Assembly: GCA_963701725.1 (NCBI GenBank) | Contig: CAVPAZ010000024.1 | Location: 47,580-111,579, forward strand | Origin: an uncultured bacterium | Lineage (GTDB): Bacteria > Pseudomonadota > Gammaproteobacteria > Burkholderiales > Burkholderiaceae_C | Direction: 5' to 3' | DNA length: 64,000 nt | Shown: piece by piece, positions 41,945 to 55,375 of the stretch | Numbering within the stretch: the stretch's first letter is position 1 | How the letters are laid out: each line of letters opens with the position of its first letter | Translations under genes and position numbers: made by a program | Notes under the pieces: generated by a model | The model's database searches: none | The model's input: only the letters and a program-made list of their open reading frames with translations | Told to the model about the DNA's origin: nothing

Positions 41945-42998
41945 TCAGACGACATAGCGCAGCCTCGCCATCGCCCGGCCGACGACCTCGCCGATCACGA
42001 GACCTCGCGTTCCCCGGCGGCCGCGCAGAGCCGCTCGCACGGGCCCGCGACATCGTCCGCGGCCACCGCGACGATCATGCCGATACCCATGTTGAAGGTG
42101 CGGCAGCATGTCGTCGCGGGGCACCTCCCCGCCGTCGTTGCAGGAACGCGAACAAGCGGCGGTGACGTCCACGAGGCGGTGTCGATGCACCGCCGACCTG
42201 CCGGCCGGCAGGATGCGCGGCAGGTTCTCCGTGATGCCGCCGCCCGTGATGTGCGCGAGTCCCTTGACGAGCGGTACCCCGCCTCGCATCGACGAGGCGG
42301 CCAGAGCACGGGCAGGTAGGAGCGGTGCGTCGCGAGCAGGGCCTCGCCGACGGTGCCCCCAGCGCGGGCACGTCGGTGTCGAGCTGCCACCGAGCTTGCT
42401 CGAAGACGAATGCGGCGGGCGAGCGAGTAGCCGTTGGTGTGCAGCCCCGAGGACGGCAGCCCGATCAGCACGTCGCCCGGCGCATGGCCGCGCCCGTCGA
42501 TCACGCGCGCCCGCGTCCACGCTGCCCGACGATGAACCCGGCGAGGTCGTACTCGCCGTCGGCATAGAAGCCTGGCATCTCGGCCGTCTCGCCGCCGAGC
42601 AGCGCGCACCCGTTCGCGCGGCACGCCCCGGGCGATGCCCTCGACGACCGCGACGGCGACGTCGGGCGACAGCCGGCCCGTGGCGAGGTAGTCGAGGAAG
42701 AACAGCGGGCGGGCGCCCTGCACGAGGATGTCGTTGACGCAGTGGTTGACGAGGTCCTCGCCGACCGTGTCGTGCCGGTTGGCGAGGAACGCGACCTTCA
42801 GCTTGGTGCCGACGCCGTCGGCGCTGGCGACCAGCACGGGCCCGTCCGCGGCGTGAGGGCTCGAGCGCGAACAGCCCGCCGAAGGCTGCCGAGCTCCGAG
42901 AGCACGCCCGGCGTGAACGTGCCTCGCGCGAGCCCCTTGATGCGGCGGACCACCTCGTGGCCCGCGTCGATGTCCACGCCGCTCGAACTGTAGTCCAT
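41945..42998 (-). pseudogene. purM: Phosphoribosylformylglycinamidine cyclo-ligase (AIR synthetase), with multiple frame breaks
   Basis: [21 protein letters not shown] (ORF 42798..42998). [52 protein letters not shown] and [11 protein letters not shown] are in ORF 41995..43830. Confidence 0.8.
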
Positions 42999-43028
42999 GC
43001 CTCAGGCTCGGCTGCCACGCTGCGCCGC

Positions 43029-44566
43029 TCAGGCAGGTGCCTTCGGCTCGCATCGGGCGCCCCGAGCCGACCGCGGGCGCCGTCGGGCTACGGTGCCGAG
43101 CCGCGTCCGGCACTGCGTCGGCTGCGCCCGTCGCTGCCTGGCCGTTCGGTTGCTGGAGCTTGAGCGCGAGCTGCAGGTACTCTCGCGATCGCGCGGGAAG
43201 GCGACGGGATAGTGTGCCGGTGTAGCACGACGTGCAGTAGGCACTGCCGCGAGGTCGCCGACGCCCGCCAGCAGGCCCTCGAGGCTCAGGTACGCGAGGG
43301 TGTCGGCGCCGAGGTACCTGCGCACCTCGTCGAGCGAGTGGGTCGCGGCGATCAGTTCGCGTGCGGCTGCGGCGTGTCGACGCCGTAGAAGCACGGGGAG
43401 ATGGTCGGCGGGCAACTGATGCGCACGTGGACTTCGCGCGCGCCGGCGGCGCGCACCATCTTGACGATCTTGCGGCTCGTCGTGCCGCGGACGATCGAGT
43501 CGTCGATGAGCACGACCCGCTGGCCCTCCAGGATGCTCGCGGACGGGGTTGAGCTTCACCCGGACGCCGAAGTGGCGGATCGACTGCTGCGGCTCGATGA
43601 ACGTGCGCCCGACGTAGTGGTTGCGGATGAGCCCCATGCGGAAGGGCATGCCGGCCTCCTCGGCGTAGCCCGAGCGCCGCGCACACGCCGGAGTCGGGCA
43701 CGGGCACGACGACGTCGGCGGCCACGCCGATCTCGCGCGCGAGCTGCCGGCCGAAGGCCGTCCGGGCCTCGTTGACGCTGCGTCCGAACACGAGGCTGTC
43801 GGGCCGCGAGAAGTACACGTGCTCGAACACGCAGTGCGCCAGCGGCTGCGGCGCGAACGGCGTGATAGCTGCGCAGCCCGTGCTCGGAGATCACGAGGAT
43901 CTCGCCCGGCTCGACGTCGCGCTCGTACGTGCGCGCCGATGAGGTCCATGGCGCACGTCTCCGAGCAGACGATGTAGCGCGTCGCCGAGGCGGCCCGAGC
44001 GCGAGCGGGCGGAACCCGTGCGGGTCGCGCGCCGCGATCAGGCGGTCGCGCGTCAGCAGCAGGAGCGAGTAGGCGCCGGTCACCTGCGCCAGCGACTCGA
44101 CGACCGCCTGCTCGGCCGGTCGGGCCTGCGACCGGGCGTACAGGTGCAGCACCACCTCGGTGTCGCTCGTGGTCTGGAAGATGGAGCCCTGCGCGCACGA
44201 GGTCGTGGCGCAGCTCGCCCGCGTTGACGAGGTTGCCGTTGTGGCAGACGGCGATCTGCCCGTGCGCGCAGTCGATGAGCAAGCGGCTGCGCGTTCTGCA
44301 GCTCGCTGTCGCCGGCGGTGGAGTAGCGCACGTGGCCGATGGCCGCGTGGCCCGGCAGCGCGGCCGAGCGTCGTCTCGTCGAAGACGTCGGCGACGTAGC
44401 CCATCGCGCGATGCACGCGGAGCCGCGCGCCGTCCGCGGTGGCGATGCCGGCGCTCTCCTGCCCGCGGTGCTGCAGCGCGTAGAGCCCGAGGTAGGCGAG
44501 GTTGGCCGCCTCGGGGTGCCCGAAGATGCCGAAGACGCCGCACTCCTCTTGTAACTTGTCGAACAT
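43029..44566 (-). pseudogene. purF: Amidophosphoribosyltransferase, with many frame breaks and an uncertain 3' end
   Basis: MFDKLQEECGVFGIFGH...ALQHRGQESAGIA and IFQTTSDTEVVLHL are in ORF 43556..44674. Later parts are in ORFs 43029..44807 and 41995..43830. Confidence 0.75.
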
Positions 44567-44861
44567 TGATGCTCCCCGGGTCCCGTGCCGCCGCGCGTCG
44601 CCTTCCGCATGAAGAAGATCGCCAGATCGCGATGTCGACGACGCCCGACGCGCGACGAGGGCGCCGGCGAGCATGGTGCCTGCGCGCGTCTCGTCGGCAG
44701 AGAGCGTCCCTGCTCCCGATCAGAGGCCGACGAACAGGAACATCGTGGCCGCCGAGATCATCAGCGACCGGCCGATGACCGCGAAGTTGCTCTGCGGGCG
44801 GCGGCATGCGTGCTCTCCGAGTTCGTTCGAACCGCGACGGCCTCGTGCGGGCGTCGGGCCG

Positions 44862-46195
44862 CTACCCGGCGACGACCGCGCTCCGCGCTGCGCCTGGAAC
44901 ACGCGGTCGAAGATGGCGTCGACGTGGCGGAGCTGTACGTGGAGGTCGAAGCAGCGCCCGATCTCCGCCGGCGACAGCACCGCCGTGACGTCCGGGTCCT
45001 GCAGCAGCAGCGTCCTGGAAGTCCACGCCGCTTGGTGGGACGCGCATGGCGTTGCGCTGCACCCACGCGTAGGCCTGCTCTCGCGAGACCCCGCGCCGCG
45101 CCAGCTCGAGCAGCACGGTCCCCGAGAACACCACGCCGCGCGACCGATCGAGGTTCTCCCGCATCCGCTCGGGGTGGACCACCATGCCCTCGACGATGCG
45201 CGTGAAACGCCGCAGCATGTGATCCAGCGCGAGGAAGCTGTCGGGCAGGATCACCCGCTCGACCGACGAGTGCGAGATGTCGCGCTCGTGCCACAGCGCG
45301 ACATTCTCGATCGCGGCCATGGCGTTGGCCGCGGACGAGCCGCGCCAGCCCGCACACCTGCTCGCAACCGATCGGGGTTGCGCTTGTGCGGCATCGCCGA
45401 GGAGCCCTTCTGGCCCTTGCCGAACGGCTCCTCGACCTCGCCGATCTCGGTCTTCTGCAGGCCCCGGACCTCGAGCGCGAACTTCTCGAGCGAGGCGGCC
45501 ATGATGGCGAGCGCGCACATGCAGCTCGGCGTGGCGGTCGCGCTGGATGACCTGCGACGACACCGGGGCCGGCGCCAGGCCCAGCGCTCGCAGACCGCGC
45601 GCCTCGATGGCCGGGTCGAGGTGGGCGAAGGTGCCGACGGCGCCCGAGAACTTGCCCACGCGCACGGCGCTCGCGCGCGCGCGCCGGACGCGCTCGACGG
45701 CGCGGCCGACCTCGGCGTACCACAGCGCGAGCTTCAGCCCGAAGGTCATCGGCTCGGCGTGCACGCCGTGCGTGCGGCCGATCATCGGCGTGCGCCGGTG
45801 CTCGATCGCGCGGCGCCTCGATGGCCTGGCGCCAGCGCCGCGAGCTGTCTCGAGCACCAGGTCGCACGCCTCGACCATCTGCAGCGCGAGCGCCGTGTCG
45901 ACGACGTCCGAGGAGGTGAGCCCGAAGTGCAGCCACCGCGCCGACGGGCCCGACGTGCTCGGCGACGGCGGTCGTGAACGCGATCAGATCGTGCTGGGTG
46001 GTCTGCTCGATCTCGTCGATGCGGGCGATGTCGAAGCCGCCGTTCTCGCGGATGTCGCGGGCCGCGGCCGGCGGGAACGATGCCCGCCTCGGCCATGGCC
46101 TCGGCCGCGGCCACCTCGACGCGCAACCAGGCCTCGAACCTGCGCTCCTCGCTCCAGATGCGCCCCATCTCGGGCTGCGTGTAGCGGCGAATCAT
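44862..46195 (-). pseudogene. purB: Adenylosuccinate lyase, with many frame breaks and an approximate 3' end
   Basis: [27 protein letters not shown] (ORF 45782..46246), [16 protein letters not shown] and [15 protein letters not shown] (ORF 44862..45878), and LRHVDAIFDRVF (ORF 44720..44980). Confidence 0.75.
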
Positions 46196-46206
46196 GCGGT
46201 GCGCCT

Positions 46207-47528
46207 TCAACGCTGGCGCCTGGTCCCGTGGACCCGCCGCCGGCACGTCGGCGTGCGGCCGATCCGCAGGCGCAGCGGCTGAGCGTCGATCCCGCCGTCG
46301 GCCCCGCCGCCGAGCACCGTCGCCGCCAGCGCGCCGTCGCGAACAGATCGCGCGCCACGCGCAGCACGTCGTCGGCGGTGACCGCCTCGATGCTGGCCAG
46401 CGTCTCGTCGAGCGTGTAGTAGCGGTCGAAGTAGAGGTCCTGCCGCGCCAGGTGGGTCATGCGGCTCGAGGTGCTCTCGAGGCTCAGCATGAGGTTGCCC
46501 TTGAGGTGGTCCTTCGCGCGCCGCAGCTCCGCGTCCGGCACCGGCGCGGCCGTGAGGCCACGCAACTCGGCGACGGCGAGGTCGAGACCTCGGCGACGTT
46601 CTCGTTCGCGCACCCGGCGTAGATGCTGAGCATGCCGGCGTCGCGGTACATGCTGCAGGCCGCTGAAGACGGAGTAGGCCAGGCCACGCTTCTCGCGGAT
46701 GTTCTGGAACAGCCGTGAGCTCATCGAGCCGCCGAGGATGCGTGTTGAGCACGTAGGCGGTGAAGCGGTCCGCGATGGTTCTGCGGGTACGACCGGCGTG
46801 CCCAGGCAGAGTGGCTCTGCTCGAGGTCCTTGGTCGCGCGTCAGCAGCGCCCGGCAGTGGCCGTCGGCGGCGTCTCGTCGTAGGCCGCGCCGGCTCGGGC
46901 ACGCCGCGAAGGCCGCCGCGACCAGGTCGCGCAACCGAGCGTGCTCGAGGTTGCCCGCGGCGGCGACGACGAAGTTCGGCGCGACGTAGGCGCCGCGCGA
47001 AGTAGTCGCGCAGCGCCGGCTGCGTGAAGGCCTCGACGGTCTCGCGCGTCCCGAGGATCGGACGGCCCAGCGGGTGACCCTCCCAGAAGTTCTGCGTGAA
47101 CAGCTCGTGCACGAGGTCGTCGGGCGTGTCCTCGACCATCTTGATCTCTTCGAGGATCACCTTCTTCTCGCGCTCGATGTCGTCCGTCCAGCGAACGCGG
47201 GCCGGCGGACGAGGTCGGCCAGCAGGTCGACCGCGAGCGGCAGGTGCTCGTCGAGCACCTTGATGTAGTAGCCGGCGTACTCCTTCGACGTGAACGCGTC
47301 GAGCTGCCCGCCGATGGAGTCGACGGCCTGCGCGATCTCCTCGGCCGACCGGGTGGTCGTGCCCTTGAAGAGCATGTGCTCGACGAAGTGCGCGATGCCG
47401 CCCTGCGCCGTCGGGCTCGTGGCGGGAACCGCGGGTGCAGCCACACGCCGATGCGACACCGAGCGGACGTGCGCCATGGTCTCGGTCGCGAGACGGAGGC
47501 CGTTGTCGAGGGTTTCGCGGGTGATCAT
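46207..47528 (-). pseudogene. M16-family zinc peptidase (insulinase-like), with multiple frame breaks
   Basis: GIAHFVEHMLFKGT (HxxEH) is in ORF 47157..47573, and ILEEIKMVEDTPDDLVHELF is in ORF 46207..47160. The remainder is spread over ORFs 46841..47446 and 45984..46934. Confidence 0.75.
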
Positions 47529-47685
47529 TCGATGGCAGGAAGCCCGGACGCCGGCGGGACGCTGGTCGCGCATGAACGGCCGCGGTCCGCTTCGCCCGGA
47601 AAACCCGATGATAGCACGCGCGCCGCGGTGCCCCGGGCCCTGGGCACGCGGGGCTCGCGTGCTAGAGTGGACTCCACGGAACTCG

Positions 47686-48836
<1,151 letters not shown>

Positions 48837-48968
48837 TCCGCGCGGGGCATCCCGCCGCTCCAGTCCGGCACGAACCTCGCGGCCGGGGACGACCCTCGCG
48901 GCGCCCGGCCCGGGCTCGGGTCGGGACGCATCCGGTCACGTGGGCGAGTCCCGGCGCGCCGCCGGTCG

Positions 48969-51900
48969 TCACCGCATGCGCGTGCCGAGTGCGTTTGTCC
49001 CGGCGGCCCAATCGACGCCGCCCGCATTCGAGTACATCGCCCGCTCAACGACAATCTGCGGGCGGCAGCACCAGCCGCGGCCGGCAGGCTCTCCACGATG
49101 GCGCCGAAGCGGCGGCTCGGCGCGCCGGTGAACTCCGCGTTCACCCACACGTTGGTGCGGCAGTTGGCCGGCAGGGACAGGCCTCTCGCCGCCGGCGTCC
49201 CGTCCTCGAAGCTAGAGCGTGACCTTCGCGGTCCCGCGTAGGCCGACGTGTTGGCGATCAGGACGAAGGTCTGGCGGCGGCGCGCCCGCGGCCTCGCCCT
49301 CGGCGAGCGCCCACGCTTCGCCGCTCGTCGGTGACGCCAGGCGAGTTATGCGCCTCGTGCCATGCCCAGTGCCGGGCCACCACATGGCGCGCTCGACGAT
49401 GATGGGGACGTCGTTCAGCGAGCGTCACGCGCGTGGACACGGCGGTGTCGGCGAGCTTGCCGGTCCTCGGTGTCGACCCAGATGTTGAAGCGGCTGTTGG
49501 CGGCGACAGCGTAGGTCTTCGGAGTCACGCGTGCCGTCGGGCAGCAGGTAGTCCGACCTCGATCAGCGCGTCGATGTCGGTCGGGTTGGCCACGAGGATG
49601 AAGAGGTCGAAGTACGCCGCCCGTCGCGCCCTCCGCCAGGAACCACTGCGTCGACTGGCGCGGTGACGCCCGCGCTCTCGTGACCGGCGTTGAACAGGCG
49701 CGCCTGCGCTCGTCAGGTACATCGCTCGCTCGACGATGATCGGCGAGCCGTCGTCGGACGTGATCACCGCGGACACGTCGGTGGCGGCCAGTCGCGGCGC
49801 CTCGTCGTCCACCCAGATGTTGAAGCGCCGCACGGTCGACGTGGTAGGTCTTGACGATCGGCGCCGCCGGGGCTGGAAGCAGGTACTTGACCTCGACGTG
49901 ACCGACGACGGTTCGGGGTTCTGGATCAGGTAGAACAGGTCGAACCCGGAGTGCGTGGCCCCCTCGGCCAGGTACCAGACAGGCGCCGGCGCAAGGACCC
50001 CGCGCTCGGTGTGTGCGCCGTATCCCGCGTCCGGCCCGCCGTGGCTCCATCGCATCGTGCGGTCCACCACAAGCGTCTCGTCCGCGTCGATCGTGGTCGC
50101 GAACTCGGCGGCCGTCATGCCCGGCACGGTGCGTGCGTCCACGGTCGCACGGCTGTGGGCGCCAATCGGCACGGGCCAATTCACGGTTGTGCCGTCACTG
50201 CGCTGGAAATGCAATGTGGCGGCGGCGGCGCGGTCGGTCGGATTCAGGAGCGCGATCCGCGTGTCGAACAGGTCACTGGTCGCCCCCTCGGCGAAATAGC
50301 GCTTCACGTATTCGTAGGTGAACGCCTGGGCGATGGTCTGCGGCGCCTGTCCGGGATTGGTGACGGTCACGTCCTGCACGCCTGCCGTTCCCCGCGGCAG
50401 GGCCAACTTCGCCGTGGTGCCGTTCAACCACGTGACGTCGGTGGCCGTCACTCCGCCTATGGTGACGGACGCGCCCGGGCTGATGTCGACCCCGGTCACG
50501 ATGGCCTCGTCGCCGCCCATGACGAGCGACGTCGCAGGGTAGACGCCGGCCTTGAAGAGCGCGTGAGCGGTGCCTGTGACGCTGGCGCCGGTCGAGAGCC
50601 TCATGAGGGGCGGGGCGGTCGCCCCGGCGGGCACCTGCAGCGTCGCCGTGTCCCCGGCGGACAGTTGCGTGGTGTACTCCCAGATCCTGCCGGTGTCCGG
50701 CGGCTGAATCGTCGCGGTGAACGGCCCGCTGGTGTACGCCTCGACGGTGATCGTGAACGGGCCGTCCAGGGTGAGGAACGACCACTGCGCGGTACCATCC
50801 GACTCGCGAAGCACATCCGCGAGGATCGCGCCGGGAGCCTCCGCCGCCAAGTGCGCCACACCGCCGTTGGCAACGTAGCCCGTCCGCCGGCCCTGGCTGT
50901 CGGTCACCGTCACGTACACGGGACACTTGAAGATCATCCGGTAGCCATCGACGAGCATCTGGATCCAGTTCGTCCGCTGCTCGTCCGTGAACGGCTCGGG
51001 CACGGTCTCATCGGAGCGGTAGTAGTTCCAGTGGTTCGCGGGATAGAAGTGGCTCGGGGTCGCGGTTCCGCCGAACTGCCCGTCGATGTACTCCTTGGTC
51101 TGGACGCGCACGACCGCTGGCTGCGTCGGCACGCCGACCCGCAGCGACGGATCGGCGAGTTGCGACATCCACTCGGGCCACGTGTAGAAGGTCGCCCGCT
51201 GCTCGATCCAGGGGTCGAGCACGCGCGCGAACTCCGCTTTCGCTCCCCACTCGGCTTCCGTCCTGCCCAGGTCGATACGGGGATAGAGAACCGCAGCCAG
51301 GTGGAACGTTCCTTCGACGAACAGCGGGCCCCAGTCGAGGCCGTTCAGCAGCCAGCGGACATCCGTGCTGCCGATCAGTTGACCCCACTGCAGGCCGTGC
51401 ATGAACGCCAGGACCTCTCGCTGGTAGTAGGGCGCGGTGTGACGGATGCACTGATTGACCCGGTCCTGCCCGAGCAGGGGCTTGAAGGCCCCCCCGGCCA
51501 GCATGTCGTTCCTGATGCCCGGGCGAAGGAGCATCAGCTTCTGATAGTCAGCGGGCACGTGCCACGCCTGGAGGTCGTTGTCGAGTTCGGCGGACATGAC
51601 CGGGCCGCTCTGAACGCCGGCGGTGCTCGGTACCGGGTCAGCAACTCCGCGAGGTTGTCCCGAACGTCGACCCGGAACGCGCCCGCCTTGACGGAGGTGT
51701 CGTCGGCGAGTTCCGCGGTGACGTCCATGTACGGAAGCGCCGCCGGGGCGCGCCAAGCGTCCTGGACCACGACATCGAAGCTCGCCTCCCCGTTTGCGTC
51801 CGTCGTCACCTCGGTGATTTGGGTCGAACTGCCCGACTGCTCGAACCGCACGTAGGACGACCCGGCCTGGAGGGCCTGCGACGAGCCGAGCAGGACGCGC

Positions 51901-53206
51901 TTGCCAGCCACGGAAACCCCGCCGAGCGAGAGCTTCGCCCGGACCCCGACCGACGTGGCGCCGAACCGCGTCGCGGCGGCCGGGCCTCCGTTGGACCCGC
52001 CGCCATAGACGTCCTGCTGGAACCCGCCGGGGGCGACGTTGGCGACGCGCTGGAACTTCGACTGGCCCAGCGTCAGCTCGAGCGTGTACCCGACGATCGT
52101 GACCGAAGCGGTCGCGGTCACCTTGGTCGCGCCGCTGCCGTAGCTGGCCGTCACCGTCACCGTGTCTCCGACCGCGACGGGAGTGATGTCAGACGAAGGA
52201 ACGGGCTTGGCCGTCATCGGCAGCAGCTCCACCCGCGCATCGCCGCTGGCGCCAGTCGTGGCCGTCACGCCGGGCACTCCGATCCCGCTGGGATCGGGCG
52301 GGATGATCAGCCCCCCCTTGTCAGTGAAGAACTCGATCGTGGCACCGCTGACCGGCGCACCGTCTCCGTCGAGGAGATTCGCCGTCAGCAGGCTCGGCGT
52401 GTGGCCATCTGCGGGCAGCTGGGTCGGTAGGGCCGACACGGTGAGCTGCGGGCCCTTCATCGGCACGCTGGTCGAGGCCGATCCGGACGCCGAGGACGCA
52501 GTGACGCTCGCAACGCCAGATGTCGTCGCGGCGACGAGCGTCGCGGTGAGTGCACCTGAGGAGTCCGTCGTGCCGACGACTGTACGTGCCCTCCTGTTGC
52601 CCGAGCCGCATCCGTCCCAGCGTGGTTCCGATGCTGGCGCTGATCCCCGCGATCCCCTTGCAGTTCACGTCGACGAAGCGCACGGTGATGCTGGACGTCG
52701 ACGTGCCGTTGGCTGGCAGGGTCTTCGGCGACGCGGTCAGGGACGCAGTCGTCGCCCCGGTGCCCGGGGTGATCTCGATCCTCTTGTTCGTCCCGAACTC
52801 GAGGTTGCGCCTCGTGCCGTTCCAGCCGTAGCCCACCGACACCCCCGTGTTGGGCGTCCCCGCAGCCGCGGTGGCGGTCAGTTCCAGCGTCGCGGTGCCG
52901 CGCGGGCACCCGCTGCAGAACCACAACGCGCCGTTGTGCCACGTGTCGAGGTTCCACGAGCCGCCGCCCGACGTGCTCGTGTTCTCGGTCCAGCCGCGTT
53001 CGAGCCGGAAGCCCTGCCACCAGATCTCGTCCCATAGCGCGCCGCCAGAGCTGGGTGTCACCGTGACCTGGATGGTCGCGCAGCGCTGCACGGACCCGGG
53101 GCCCGAGATCGAGGTACTCGCTGGGATTGCTCTGGGCAGCCGACTGACCAGCCATCGACATCAAGCCGGCGATTACGACGGGCGCAGTGAACCGCGCAGC
53201 ACGCAT
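48969..53206 (-). pseudogene. Very large (~1,410-codon) secreted multidomain protein. It has a signal peptide, Big_1-type Ig domains, an unassigned ~240-aa central domain, an IPT/TIG-like domain and four 'AEG' repeats, with several frame breaks.
   Basis: Signal peptide MRAARFTAPVVIAGLMSMAGQSAAQ (ATG 53206). SLTASPKTLPANGTSTSSITVRFVD and VSALPTQLPADGHTPSLLTANLLDGDGAPVSGATIEFF are invasin/intimin-like Ig domains. Pieces lie in ORFs 52457..53290, 52321..53091, 51534..52466, 49525..51756, 49415..50179, 49258..49440 and 48494..49150. The reconstructed end is ...WAAGTNALGTRMR* (stop 48969-48971). Confidence 0.65.
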
Positions 53207-53356
53207 GATGTGCCTCCGTGACTTCTGGCGACACGGTGCGCTCGAGCGCGGGCGGGCACAAGGGACCGCCGGTAGTGTCACGGTGAACACTCCAGCAAAC
53301 CACTCAGAATCAGTGATTTCCAGGCGAGGCGGCGGTTAGCCTGTAACTGCCGTGGT

Positions 53357-55375
53357 ATGCTCCGGCCGGTCGTGCCATGGGGGAAACCGGTCCCTCGAGA
53401 GCGGGCGTTGGCGGTCGCAGGGGCCGTTCGGTCGAAGCGGTACCCGAGGAACTCGCTCGATTCTGCGCTCACTCGCGTCCTGAACTCCGCCGCCTTCGCG
53501 CACGCCGGACGGTTGGCCCGCTTCCTGCGGTTTGCCGCGCGGGAAGTGTTCGCCGGCCACGGCGACCGGCTGAAGGAATACGTCGTCGCGGTCGAGGTCT
53601 TCGACCGTCCCGCCTCGTTCAATCCCGCCACTGACTCCGTCGTCCGCGTCGAGGCCCGCCGTCTCCGGGCGAAGCTCGAGGCCTTCTACGCCGACGAAGG
53701 TCGCGACGAACGGGTGGTCATCGAGTTGCCGAAGGGCAGCTACGCACCCGTGTTCGGGTTCCGCGCCGAGCCGGGTTCGGCTGAGTCGGCGTCCGGGCAG
53801 AGCGCTCCGGTGGGCGCTGCAGAGGGCCTGGCGGAACCGGAGGGGAACCACTCTCGCGCTGGAGCGGCGGCTCAGCGGGCTGGCGTGGCCGGGTGGCCGG
53901 GCGCCGGGCGCCGCCATGCCCTCCTGATGGGCATGGCCCTGGCACTGGTGGTGATCTCGGTCGGCACGTCGGTCCTGCTGTGGAAGGCCCGACCCGCCGC
54001 TGCCGTGGTCGCGGTGCTTCCGTTCGATAGCATCGGGGGCGGAACCGACGACGAGTACTTCGCCTTCGGCGTCATGGAGGACTTGACGGCACGGTTATCA
54101 CGGGTCGAGGGCCTTCGCGTGGTCGCGCGAACCTCCGCCTCGCAGTACAAGCGGGGAGACGACGTCGGGACGGTCGCGCGACGTCTCAATGCCACGGCCA
54201 TCGTTGAGGGGAGCGTGCGTCGGGCCGGGTCGATGCTCCGGGTGACGACACAGTTGATCGATGCCTCGAGCGGGCACCACCTGTGGGCACGCACCTACGA
54301 CCGCGCCGCCACCGACGTGTTCGCAGCGCAGGACGACGTGACGCGCGACAGCGCCACGGAGATCGCCAACCGCCTCACGGGACGCGCTCCCGTGGCGGCA
54401 AAGGCGGCGGAAGTGCCGGCCGCGGCGCTCGCCGAGGACCGGAAAGGCCGGTACGAGCGCAACCGCAGGACGCCCGAGGGACGCCGGCAATGCGTTGCGC
54501 ACTTCGAGGAGGCGGTGCGACTGGCACCGCGGTTCGCCCCAGCCCACGCCGCGCTCGGCGAGATTCTACGCGACGCTCGCGTTCCACGGCGAGATGGCGG
54601 TCGAGAGCAGCGTCGAGAGGGCCAAGGCGTCGATTGCGCGCGCGCTGGACATCGACGCTGACCTGGCCGACGCGCACAACACGCTTGCCTGGATGCGGTT
54701 CTTCTACGACTGGGACTGGCCCGGCGCCGAACGCGAGTTCCAGCGCGCGATCGCCCTGAACCCGAGCCACGCTGGTGCGAGGCAACTGTATGCGCTCGGC
54801 CTGGCCTCTCGCGGGCGGTTCGACGAGGCGGTCGCCCAGTCCGATGCGGCGGTCGACTTGGACCCGATGGTGTACATGATCAGCGCCGAGCGAGGCGCGG
54901 TCCTCTATTGCAGCCGCCGCTACGACGAAGCCATCCGTCACGCGCAACGGGCGCTGGCGGCGAACCCTGACGCCGCCGCGGTCCGCGGCGTGTTGGGGTC
55001 GGCGCTTGCGGCGCGCGGGCAGTACGCGGAGGCCGTGGCCGAGTTCGAGAAGAGCGTGGCCGTCTTCGGACGCATCTCATACGTCATGGCCCGCATGGGA
55101 CATGCCTACGTCGGCCTCGGACGCGTCGAGGAAGCGCGGGGGCTGTTGTCGGAACTCGAAGCGGGCCAGGACTCAGGCGACGTGGCGCCGGTTCACCTCG
55201 CCCTCCTCTACACTGCCCTCGGCGACAAGGATTCCGGGCGTTCGAGGCCCTCTCGCGGGGGTGTGACCGTCACGATGGCGACGTGGTCTTCCTCGGCGTC
55301 GAGCCCCTGCTCGATCCGCTGCGGACCGACCCCCGCTTTGCGGAACTCCTGAAGCGCGTGCACCTCGCCGATTGA
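53357..55375 (+). pseudogene. Membrane-anchored ToxR/CadC-like regulator with a periplasmic TolB-N-like domain and TPR domain, with 2-3 frame breaks
   Basis: The N-terminus RLARFLRFAAREVFAGHGDRLKEYVVAVEVFDR...VRVEARRLRAKLEAFYADEGRDERVVIELPKGSYAPVF looks like a winged-helix trans_reg_C domain. It is followed by a TM helix ALLMGMALALVVISVGTSVLLW, then VAVLPFDSIGG...FAFGVMEDL. The TPR part is in ORF 54495..55352, and the reconstructed tail is ...DPRFAELLKRVHLAD*. Confidence 0.65.

Follow-up and report, generated by a model that had tools for sequence, protein, structure and literature searches.

A stretch of DNA from an uncultured bacterium (assembly GCA_963701725.1, contig CAVPAZ010000024.1, positions 47,580 to 111,579 of the forward strand; 64,000 nucleotides, called the window from here on) carries on its minus strand, between window positions 48969 and 53206, a coding region that raises two questions: is it one large gene for an exported protein, and what could the domain at its centre do? 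From the letters alone it had been read as a gene of about 1,410 codons for a surface or secreted protein with a possibly enzymatic core (the sequence-only reading). We found that the coding region is one gene and not several genes, and that it encodes an exported surface or extracellular protein of approximately 1,400 residues. The best overall explanation, which we hold with moderate confidence, is a single, probably functional gene of a Vicinamibacterales-type acidobacterium, which was broken by assembly errors and which encodes a non-catalytic head on a stalk of immunoglobulin-like (Ig-like) domains.

One gene, read in three frames

No single open reading frame (ORF) spans 48969-53206 on the minus strand, and the coding signal is spread across the three frames of this strand. 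The longest stop-to-stop piece lies at 49528-52188 (minus strand, 887 codons); overlapping ORF pieces flank it, with 376, 279 and 292 codons on its upstream side and 259 and 283 on its downstream side. In the public protein set the gene on this contig is represented only by a 659-aa fragment (P0001), probably because assembly indel errors split the gene. The two end points given in the sequence-only reading stood, and so did its claim of one gene after frame correction, but an ORF of about 1,410 codons does not exist in the deposited sequence. The peptides that it had quoted were all found on the minus strand.

Homologues carry the evidence for one gene. With the intact central piece as query against 5.8 billion proteins, we obtained seven near full-length relatives of 1,391-1,426 aa from Acidobacteria/Vicinamibacterales metagenome assemblies, with 40-43% identity and 95-98% query coverage. 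These relatives are single ORFs on their own contigs with the same order of domains, and stop-free frames of 1,474 aa and 1,454 aa were found in a Vicinamibacteraceae metagenome-assembled genome (MAG) and in an Acidobacteria MAG, respectively, both of which are species-representative genomes. The homologues P0002-P0008 (among them P0003 = JNM38_20125, 1,391 aa, and P0004 = MUF60_05325) are uncharacterised “hypothetical proteins” that equal this copy in length, domain order and C-terminal cassette and are 40-43% identical to it over the central 576 residues. They differ from it in that they are intact ORFs and carry Ser at residue 65 of the central domain, whereas this copy is broken and carries Ala there, and their gene neighbourhoods have nothing in common with this one. 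The corrected product could be aligned collinearly to the homologue P0005, beginning with the signal peptide and reaching the final residue. Because intact homologues of 1,391-1,426 aa align end to end, the one-gene reading holds.

A split into several independent genes, each with a start and a stop of its own, would fit the ORF listing, which has at least five separate minus-strand ORFs, and the sequence-only reading had named such a split as the outcome that would overturn it. However, every piece is collinear with single proteins of 1,391-1,426 aa, the pieces overlap in different frames and lack start contexts of their own, and the frame changes occur inside a continuous coding signal in a plot of G+C content at third codon positions (GC3 frame plot). 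Relatives with the parts as separate genes were looked for in the homologue searches and none were found, and we regard several genes as extremely improbable.

The frame breaks were located with our own frameshift-aware protein-to-DNA alignment against P0005 (1,426 aa), together with manual reading of the three frames over the last 350 nt. Approximately 18 frame switches are needed, of which 3 are upstream and 15 lie between 49890 and 49060 in the last 930 nt; 12 of the 16 switches that could be typed correspond to a net change of +1 base.

~53125, ~52587 and ~51629, minus strand: upstream frame switches, from the alignment to P0005
~49890, 49828, 49707, 49655, 49618, 49563, 49529 and 49465, minus strand: 3' frame switches, from the alignment to P0005
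~49416, 49364, 49329, 49280, 49235, 49215 and 49060, minus strand: 3' frame switches, continued, from the alignment and manual frame reading

The GC3 frame plot (window G+C 67-74%) agreed independently with the three upstream switches: in it the coding frame changes at ~53100, ~52500 and ~51580, and below ~49780 there is no stable frame. Two further switches placed by the aligner at 52085 and 51985 were rejected, as the native frame is open there and gives a sensible reading. The region 51627-49891, which covers the central, beta-sandwich and TIG domains and C-terminal repeat 1, is one unbroken frame, and the central domain could therefore be analysed without editing any base.

The frame breaks probably reflect a problem of assembly quality rather than biology. 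The clean 1,404-codon frame of rpoB means that the assembly is not uniformly bad. A codon-usage model trained on 207 long ORFs of the genome and run as a Viterbi segmentation gave, across the genome, approximately 1,800 putative switches of frame on one strand with no stop close by, and these are strongly patchy: 5-kb bins of this contig contain either 0-4 or 9-22 switches, and similar patches occur on many contigs. One such patch has the 3' end of the gene at its edge.

42400-49900, both strands: dense frame-switch patch, from the Viterbi segmentation, fragmentary Pfam matches and the split rlmN

Within this patch the switches are spaced roughly one per 60-300 nt, while 2.4-42.4 kb is almost free of them. 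In addition to the 3' end of the giant gene, four neighbours on the two strands are broken in it: an AIRS-domain gene, a pair of M16 peptidase genes and a copy of rlmN. The frame-corrected path contains zero stop codons. Identity to P0005 is 65% in the most broken segment, 57% in the intact repeat 1 and 42-44% in the intact middle, and the broken part has an indel density of approximately 1.6% with no matching substitution decay. Near-relative fragments from other assemblies (P0122, P0124 and P0125) are frame-broken at other sites, and one of these breaks falls within the domain that is unbroken in this copy; the indel problem would therefore appear to affect further assemblies of the lineage too, at different sites. 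P0124 was seen to leave the frame exactly across the CPVYVTV strand and to be back in frame at AAEAPGAIL.

A true pseudogene decaying through accumulated small indels would account for the ~18 frame switches in the deposited sequence and for a database product (P0001) of only 659 aa at the locus, and in an accessory and sporadic family, with a strong match in 2 of 201 genomes of the order, loss would be tolerable. But pseudogene decay would be expected neither to break the neighbours, including rlmN and the AIRS-domain gene, in the same patch on both strands, nor to recur in comparable patches all over the genome. A stop-free corrected path whose most broken part has the highest identity, and indels without substitution decay, are also unlike pseudogene ageing, so a pseudogene is in our view very improbable. 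The switches are thus probably one-base consensus errors in a gene that is itself probably functional. The evidence for this reading is indirect and comes from assembled sequences.

Domain order and a rare central domain

Along the corrected path, the parts of the gene are the following, from the ribosome-binding site to the stop codon:

53213-53217, minus strand: Shine-Dalgarno-like GGAGG, 7 nt upstream of the ATG, read from the sequence
53206-53204, minus strand: start codon ATG, read from the sequence
53135-53206, minus strand: Sec-type signal peptide MRAARFTAPVVIAGLMSMAGQSAA, then Q; likely cleavage after SAA, judged by eye
52753-53134, minus strand: conserved N-terminal Trp/Gly-rich module, 28% identical to the module of P0005, crossed by the switch at ~53125
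52158-52752, minus strand: two Big_1/Invasin_D3 Ig-like domains (~52752-52579 and ~52445-52158; PF02369, PF09134), with the switch at ~52587
51630-52157, minus strand: further beta-rich Ig-like stalk, no Pfam match, ending at the switch at ~51629
50940-51627, minus strand: central uncatalogued domain of ~230 aa (P0121 residues 1-229), with Ala65, Gln69, His109 and Asp138
50593-50939, minus strand: beta-sandwich domain of the AlphaFold2 (AF2) model, opening with the invariant Cys235-Pro-Val
50314-50544, minus strand: IPT/TIG domain (PF01833, E 8e-6, 26.2 bits, above the cut-off of 20.9)
48972-50310, minus strand: four “AEGAT...NP” repeats of ~110-130 aa each, from alignments; repeat 1 intact, repeats 2-4 with 15 frame switches
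48969-48971, minus strand: stop codon, after ...AGTNALGTRMR

Most of the architecture had been anticipated in the sequence-only reading, and it was borne out at nearly every point. The N-terminal peptide MRAARFTAPVVIAGLMSMAGQSAAQ, which follows the GGAGG and the ATG, looks by eye like a Sec signal peptide, and the homologues carry equivalent hydrophobic N-termini. The N-terminal module has no Pfam match and no sequence relative in the PDB. Two or three Big_1-like domains had been proposed; two Big_1/Invasin_D3 matches were found (E 1.4e-9 and 7.9e-7), followed by the Ig-like region that Pfam does not recognise. The second Ig domain passes the Big_1 cut-off (38.4 bits, cut-off 34.9), and the first falls just below that of Invasin_D3 (29.9 bits, cut-off 33); the Ig region is 40% identical to the homologues. 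The predicted beta-sandwich and IPT-like domains were also recovered: residues 229-345 of the AF2 model are all-beta with a predicted local distance difference test score (pLDDT) of 85-91, for which Foldseek gave weak Ig-like matches only, and the TIG domain lies beyond them. The C-terminal repeat array proved to consist of four tandem repeats, and a surface or secreted protein is consistent with the signal peptide and the Ig-like domains.

With a signal peptide, tandem Big_1/Invasin_D3 domains and a functional domain that is not Ig-like, the protein resembles fibrillar adhesin-like proteins with invasin/intimin-type stalks. Unlike intimin and invasin, it has neither a beta-barrel anchor nor a C-type-lectin-like tip, and it differs from fibrillar adhesin-like proteins in that the functional domain is in the middle of the chain instead of at its end and the C-terminus is a DUF5719-like cassette. 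A sister architecture was observed in P0009, P0010 and P0139, where the chain is kept from the N-terminal module through the Ig stalk and the central domain up to TIG, and an FG-GAP/VCBS beta-propeller follows. As the propeller stands there in place of the repeats, the C-terminal module is exchangeable.

The central segment of about 240 aa had been called unassignable, and our searches led to the same result. Its translation from the unedited window sequence (P0121, 241 aa) had no match in Pfam, NCBIfam or the PDB sequences, and a 23-member family profile gave nothing meaningful against the PDB and Pfam. The best PDB profile match, to a pilin at E 0.16, was discarded as chance. The family comprised 24 representative clusters among 1.84 billion and, within the allowed length range, 13 proteins among 5.8 billion, so the central domain is a rare and undescribed family. 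Its carriers are large proteins which nearly always have Big_1/Invasin_D3 domains as well. The distant members with Cys at position 65 (P0129, P0133, P0143, P0146 and P0147, and P0140, P0142 and P0144) differ in their C-terminal tails, which by eye are either dockerin-like repeats or, in the manner of MYXO-CTERM, a Gly/Cys-rich motif before a hydrophobic tail with basic residues. The domain would therefore seem to be extracellular and to be combined with several sorting systems.

An alignment of 33 family members was used to determine conservation. Gln69 is invariant, His109 is present in 31 of the 33 members and Asp138 in 32; the Asp138-Pro-Trp context, Gln143 and Trp153 are further invariant positions. 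Cys235-Pro-Val is invariant wherever the sequence reaches it, and Cys235 is the lone Cys in the exported protein. Position 65 is the variable one:

Cys: 17 of 33 members, motif [FY]x-C-G-x-Y-Q, the distant members
Ser: 10 of 33, motif T-S-P-W-W-Q, the close 1,400-aa homologues
Ala: 4 of 33, motif T-A-P-Y-Y-Q, this copy, P0009, P0010 and P0123; also the fragment P0122
Other: 2 of 33, P0139 and P0137

Because Ala65 recurs in the nearest relatives P0009, P0010, P0123 and P0122, it looks real and not like a sequencing error. P0139 has lost His109 too.

Fold and possible chemistry of the head

An AF2 model of 345 residues was obtained with a pLDDT of 74 and a predicted template modelling score (pTM) of 0.77. 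In this model residue 65 is at the first turn of the helix 65-81, His109 opens the second strand of a hairpin (97-104, 109-116), Asp138 comes just after the strand 135-137, and Cys235 is in the first strand of the next domain and is followed by Pro. The modelled order of residues is plausibly that of papain/transglutaminase-type thiol enzymes. By residue order and predicted secondary structure the family would share with Transglut_core and papain-like domains a Cys at a helix start, a His that opens a beta-strand, an Asp after the next strand and a D-P motif. It differs from them in having no detectable homology, in its additional invariant Gln at i+4 and invariant Cys235, and, for this copy, in the missing Cys.

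An enzymatic core, as suggested in the sequence-only reading, therefore appears plausible for the wider family, where the Cys65/Gln69/His109/Asp138/Cys235 set is conserved, but doubtful for this copy, because Ala65 replaces the Cys; the close homologues have Ser65. We suggest the following mechanism. Read along the chain, a signal peptide, the N-terminal module, two Big_1 domains with a further Ig-like stalk, the ~230-aa head, the beta-sandwich, the TIG domain and four DUF5719-like repeats follow one another. The protein would be exported by Sec to the cell surface or outside, the Ig-like domains would hold the head away from the cell, and the four-repeat cassette would retain the protein at the surface or in the matrix. 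The family may descend from, or converge on, a thiol enzyme-like domain in which the Vicinamibacterales clade has replaced the nucleophile, and the head of the Ala65 copy would then bind a ligand instead of catalysing. This origin, with the head as a non-catalytic binder, is put forward tentatively, as something possible but short of probable; both the fold class of the head and its loss of catalysis are what we infer from the model and the alignment.

Several results weigh against it. A model of the 241-aa domain without its neighbour was poor (pLDDT 57), and Foldseek searches of the PDB with it gave nothing significant (best E 0.78). With the 345-residue model, Foldseek returned weak Ig-like and nanobody matches to the beta-sandwich half only (best E 0.016). 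A papain-like fold (clan CA) was not recovered: the pLDDT 57 model had a few USP/GtgE matches with probability <=0.06. There was no hmmscan match to Transglut_core (PF01841) up to E 10. The supposed resemblance to a transglutaminase core was tried with hhalign at five settings against 28 Transglut_core domains from genomes of relatives and failed (probability 0.1, E 0.44-0.52). The papain/transglutaminase-like reading thus comes from residue order and predicted secondary structure only. In addition, His109, Asp138, Gln69 and Cys235 stay invariant in the clade without Cys65, which suggests that the site still does something.

That last point would be explained if the domain of this copy were still an active enzyme that uses another nucleophile, either Cys235 or the clade-conserved Thr64, with His109 and Asp138, and if the Ser65 homologues had a Ser-His-Asp triad. 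In the Cys65-less clade, whose sequences are 36-50% identical, His109, Asp138, Gln69, Gln143 and Cys235 are all invariant; Ser65 in the close homologues is a classical nucleophile swap, and Cys235 is the lone and invariant Cys of an exported protein. However, Ala65 is kept in P0009, P0010, P0123 and P0122, Cys235, placed before a Pro in the opening strand of the domain that follows, is in an unusual setting for a nucleophile, and no enzyme family shows homology to the domain. We consider an active enzyme unlikely for this copy. Cys65, His109, Asp138 and Cys235 may also form a candidate metal-binding set.

In complement C3 and alpha-2-macroglobulin an internal thioester is formed in a CGEQ motif. 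A covalent bond is conceivable here too: Cys65 and Gln69, at i and i+4 on one face of a helix, would form an internal thioester with the assistance of His109, and the Ser/Thr members would perhaps form an ester. The C-G-x-Y-Q motif with its invariant Gln speaks for this, as do the weak macroglobulin MG4 match of P0139 and the position of the domain nearly always beside Ig-like stalk domains in large surface proteins, as in the TIE proteins (PMC4450167). In the thioester domains of Gram-positive bacteria, though, the Cys belongs to a [YFL]C-hydrophobic-hydrophilic beta-strand motif and the Gln is far off in a second beta-strand motif, and the thioester domains of TIE adhesins are found only in Gram-positives (PMC4450167). 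The Cys-type relatives have their Cys at a helix start in CGxYQ, and Pfam gave no match to the thioester domain (TED) or A2M families. Compared with the TIE thioester domains and the CGEQ proteins, the family thus has the conserved Cys and Gln and the Ig-stalk surface proteins in common, but the motif context and spacing are different, the hosts are diderm and this copy has no Cys. A thioester also gives no reason why Gln69 and His109 should stay invariant in members that have lost the Cys, and the Ala65 copy could not form the bond. So we judge a thioester domain to be very unlikely.

A broader proposal would take the head as a new extracellular thiol-dependent family in diderms, either a variant of the cysteine hydrolase/transferase fold or a CGxYQ thioester, with the Vicinamibacterales clade as a Ser/Ala-substituted derivative whose chemistry was changed or lost. 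This is speculative, and we give it little weight, if more than the thioester by itself. If true, the CGxYQ type would for the first time extend thioester domains beyond Gram-positives and the alpha-2-macroglobulin family.

Host, neighbourhood and the C-terminal cassette

All relatives found are acidobacterial, and the gene probably belongs to a Vicinamibacterales-type acidobacterium, as the sequence-only reading had expected of its relatives. The genome bin that holds the window does not look like that group, because the central-domain profile had no match in the 40 genomes sampled among its relatives (14 from its genus, 10 from its family and 16 from its order). The C-terminal cassette occurs once in the whole bin. 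Two rlmN genes were observed in the bin: the copy at 47725-48752 of the window (plus strand) is split over several frames, with a best piece of 91.7 bits, and a second, intact one (416 bits) is at 66618-67697 of contig C2. Two rlmN in one bin are compatible with a second organism as the source of all or part of a contig.

Of 201 genomes sampled from the order to which the Vicinamibacteraceae MAG belongs, 2 had a strong match and 1 more a weak match, so the gene is a sporadic accessory gene. Two long contigs with homologues and the surroundings of the distant member P0130 showed no conserved operon, and the neighbourhoods of two homologues have nothing in common with this locus. A divergent ToxR/CadC-like regulator adjoins the gene at 53357-54661 (plus strand). 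A homologue of it, 42.6% identical, is directly upstream of the orthologous gene in the Vicinamibacteraceae MAG (L006:2275-3339, plus strand), where both are on the same strand. This linkage was seen in 1 of the 3 loci with enough flank and not in the two other homologue loci, and is a weak hint of a link between regulator and gene.

The cassette of four repeats has a much wider distribution than the head. Repeat 1 (49915-50310, minus strand) and residues 581-706 of P0048, an otherwise unrelated protein of the beta-lactamase family with 1,028 aa, are 62% identical, a higher value than that for orthologues of the giant protein; the three further repeats of P0048 (within 581-1028) are 32-33% identical to repeat 1. 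Hundreds of proteins from the homologue search carry the cassette behind unrelated N-terminal parts, such as beta-lactamase-family proteins, TIG/FN3 arrays, lactonases, peptidases and hydrolases. In Acidobacteria it stands behind many different N-terminal domains, and it has no sequence relative in the PDB. It may be related to DUF5719 (PF18986), at best weakly: some cassette proteins match that family weakly (P0052, E 2.4e-6, 27.4 bits, cut-off 26.2), whereas repeat 1 of the window and P0005 fall below any Pfam threshold. No paper mentioning DUF5719 was found in the literature, and it has no known function. The cassette is more alike in unrelated proteins than the remainder of this protein is in orthologues. 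A shared partner is suggested by this, and we infer a possible role in retention at the cell surface or matrix, or in sorting. What weighs against this is that anchoring is a guess from distribution.

The locus carries a practical warning, as assembly indels can reduce a large gene to a fragmentary public protein call. Little is understood of the abundant Acidobacteria of soil, and most of their large exoproteins lack annotation. The gene points to two reusable parts that are absent from the databases, a rare head domain with an enzyme-like set of residues and a strongly conserved four-repeat cassette, the latter of which perhaps serves the phylum generally in surface retention or sorting.

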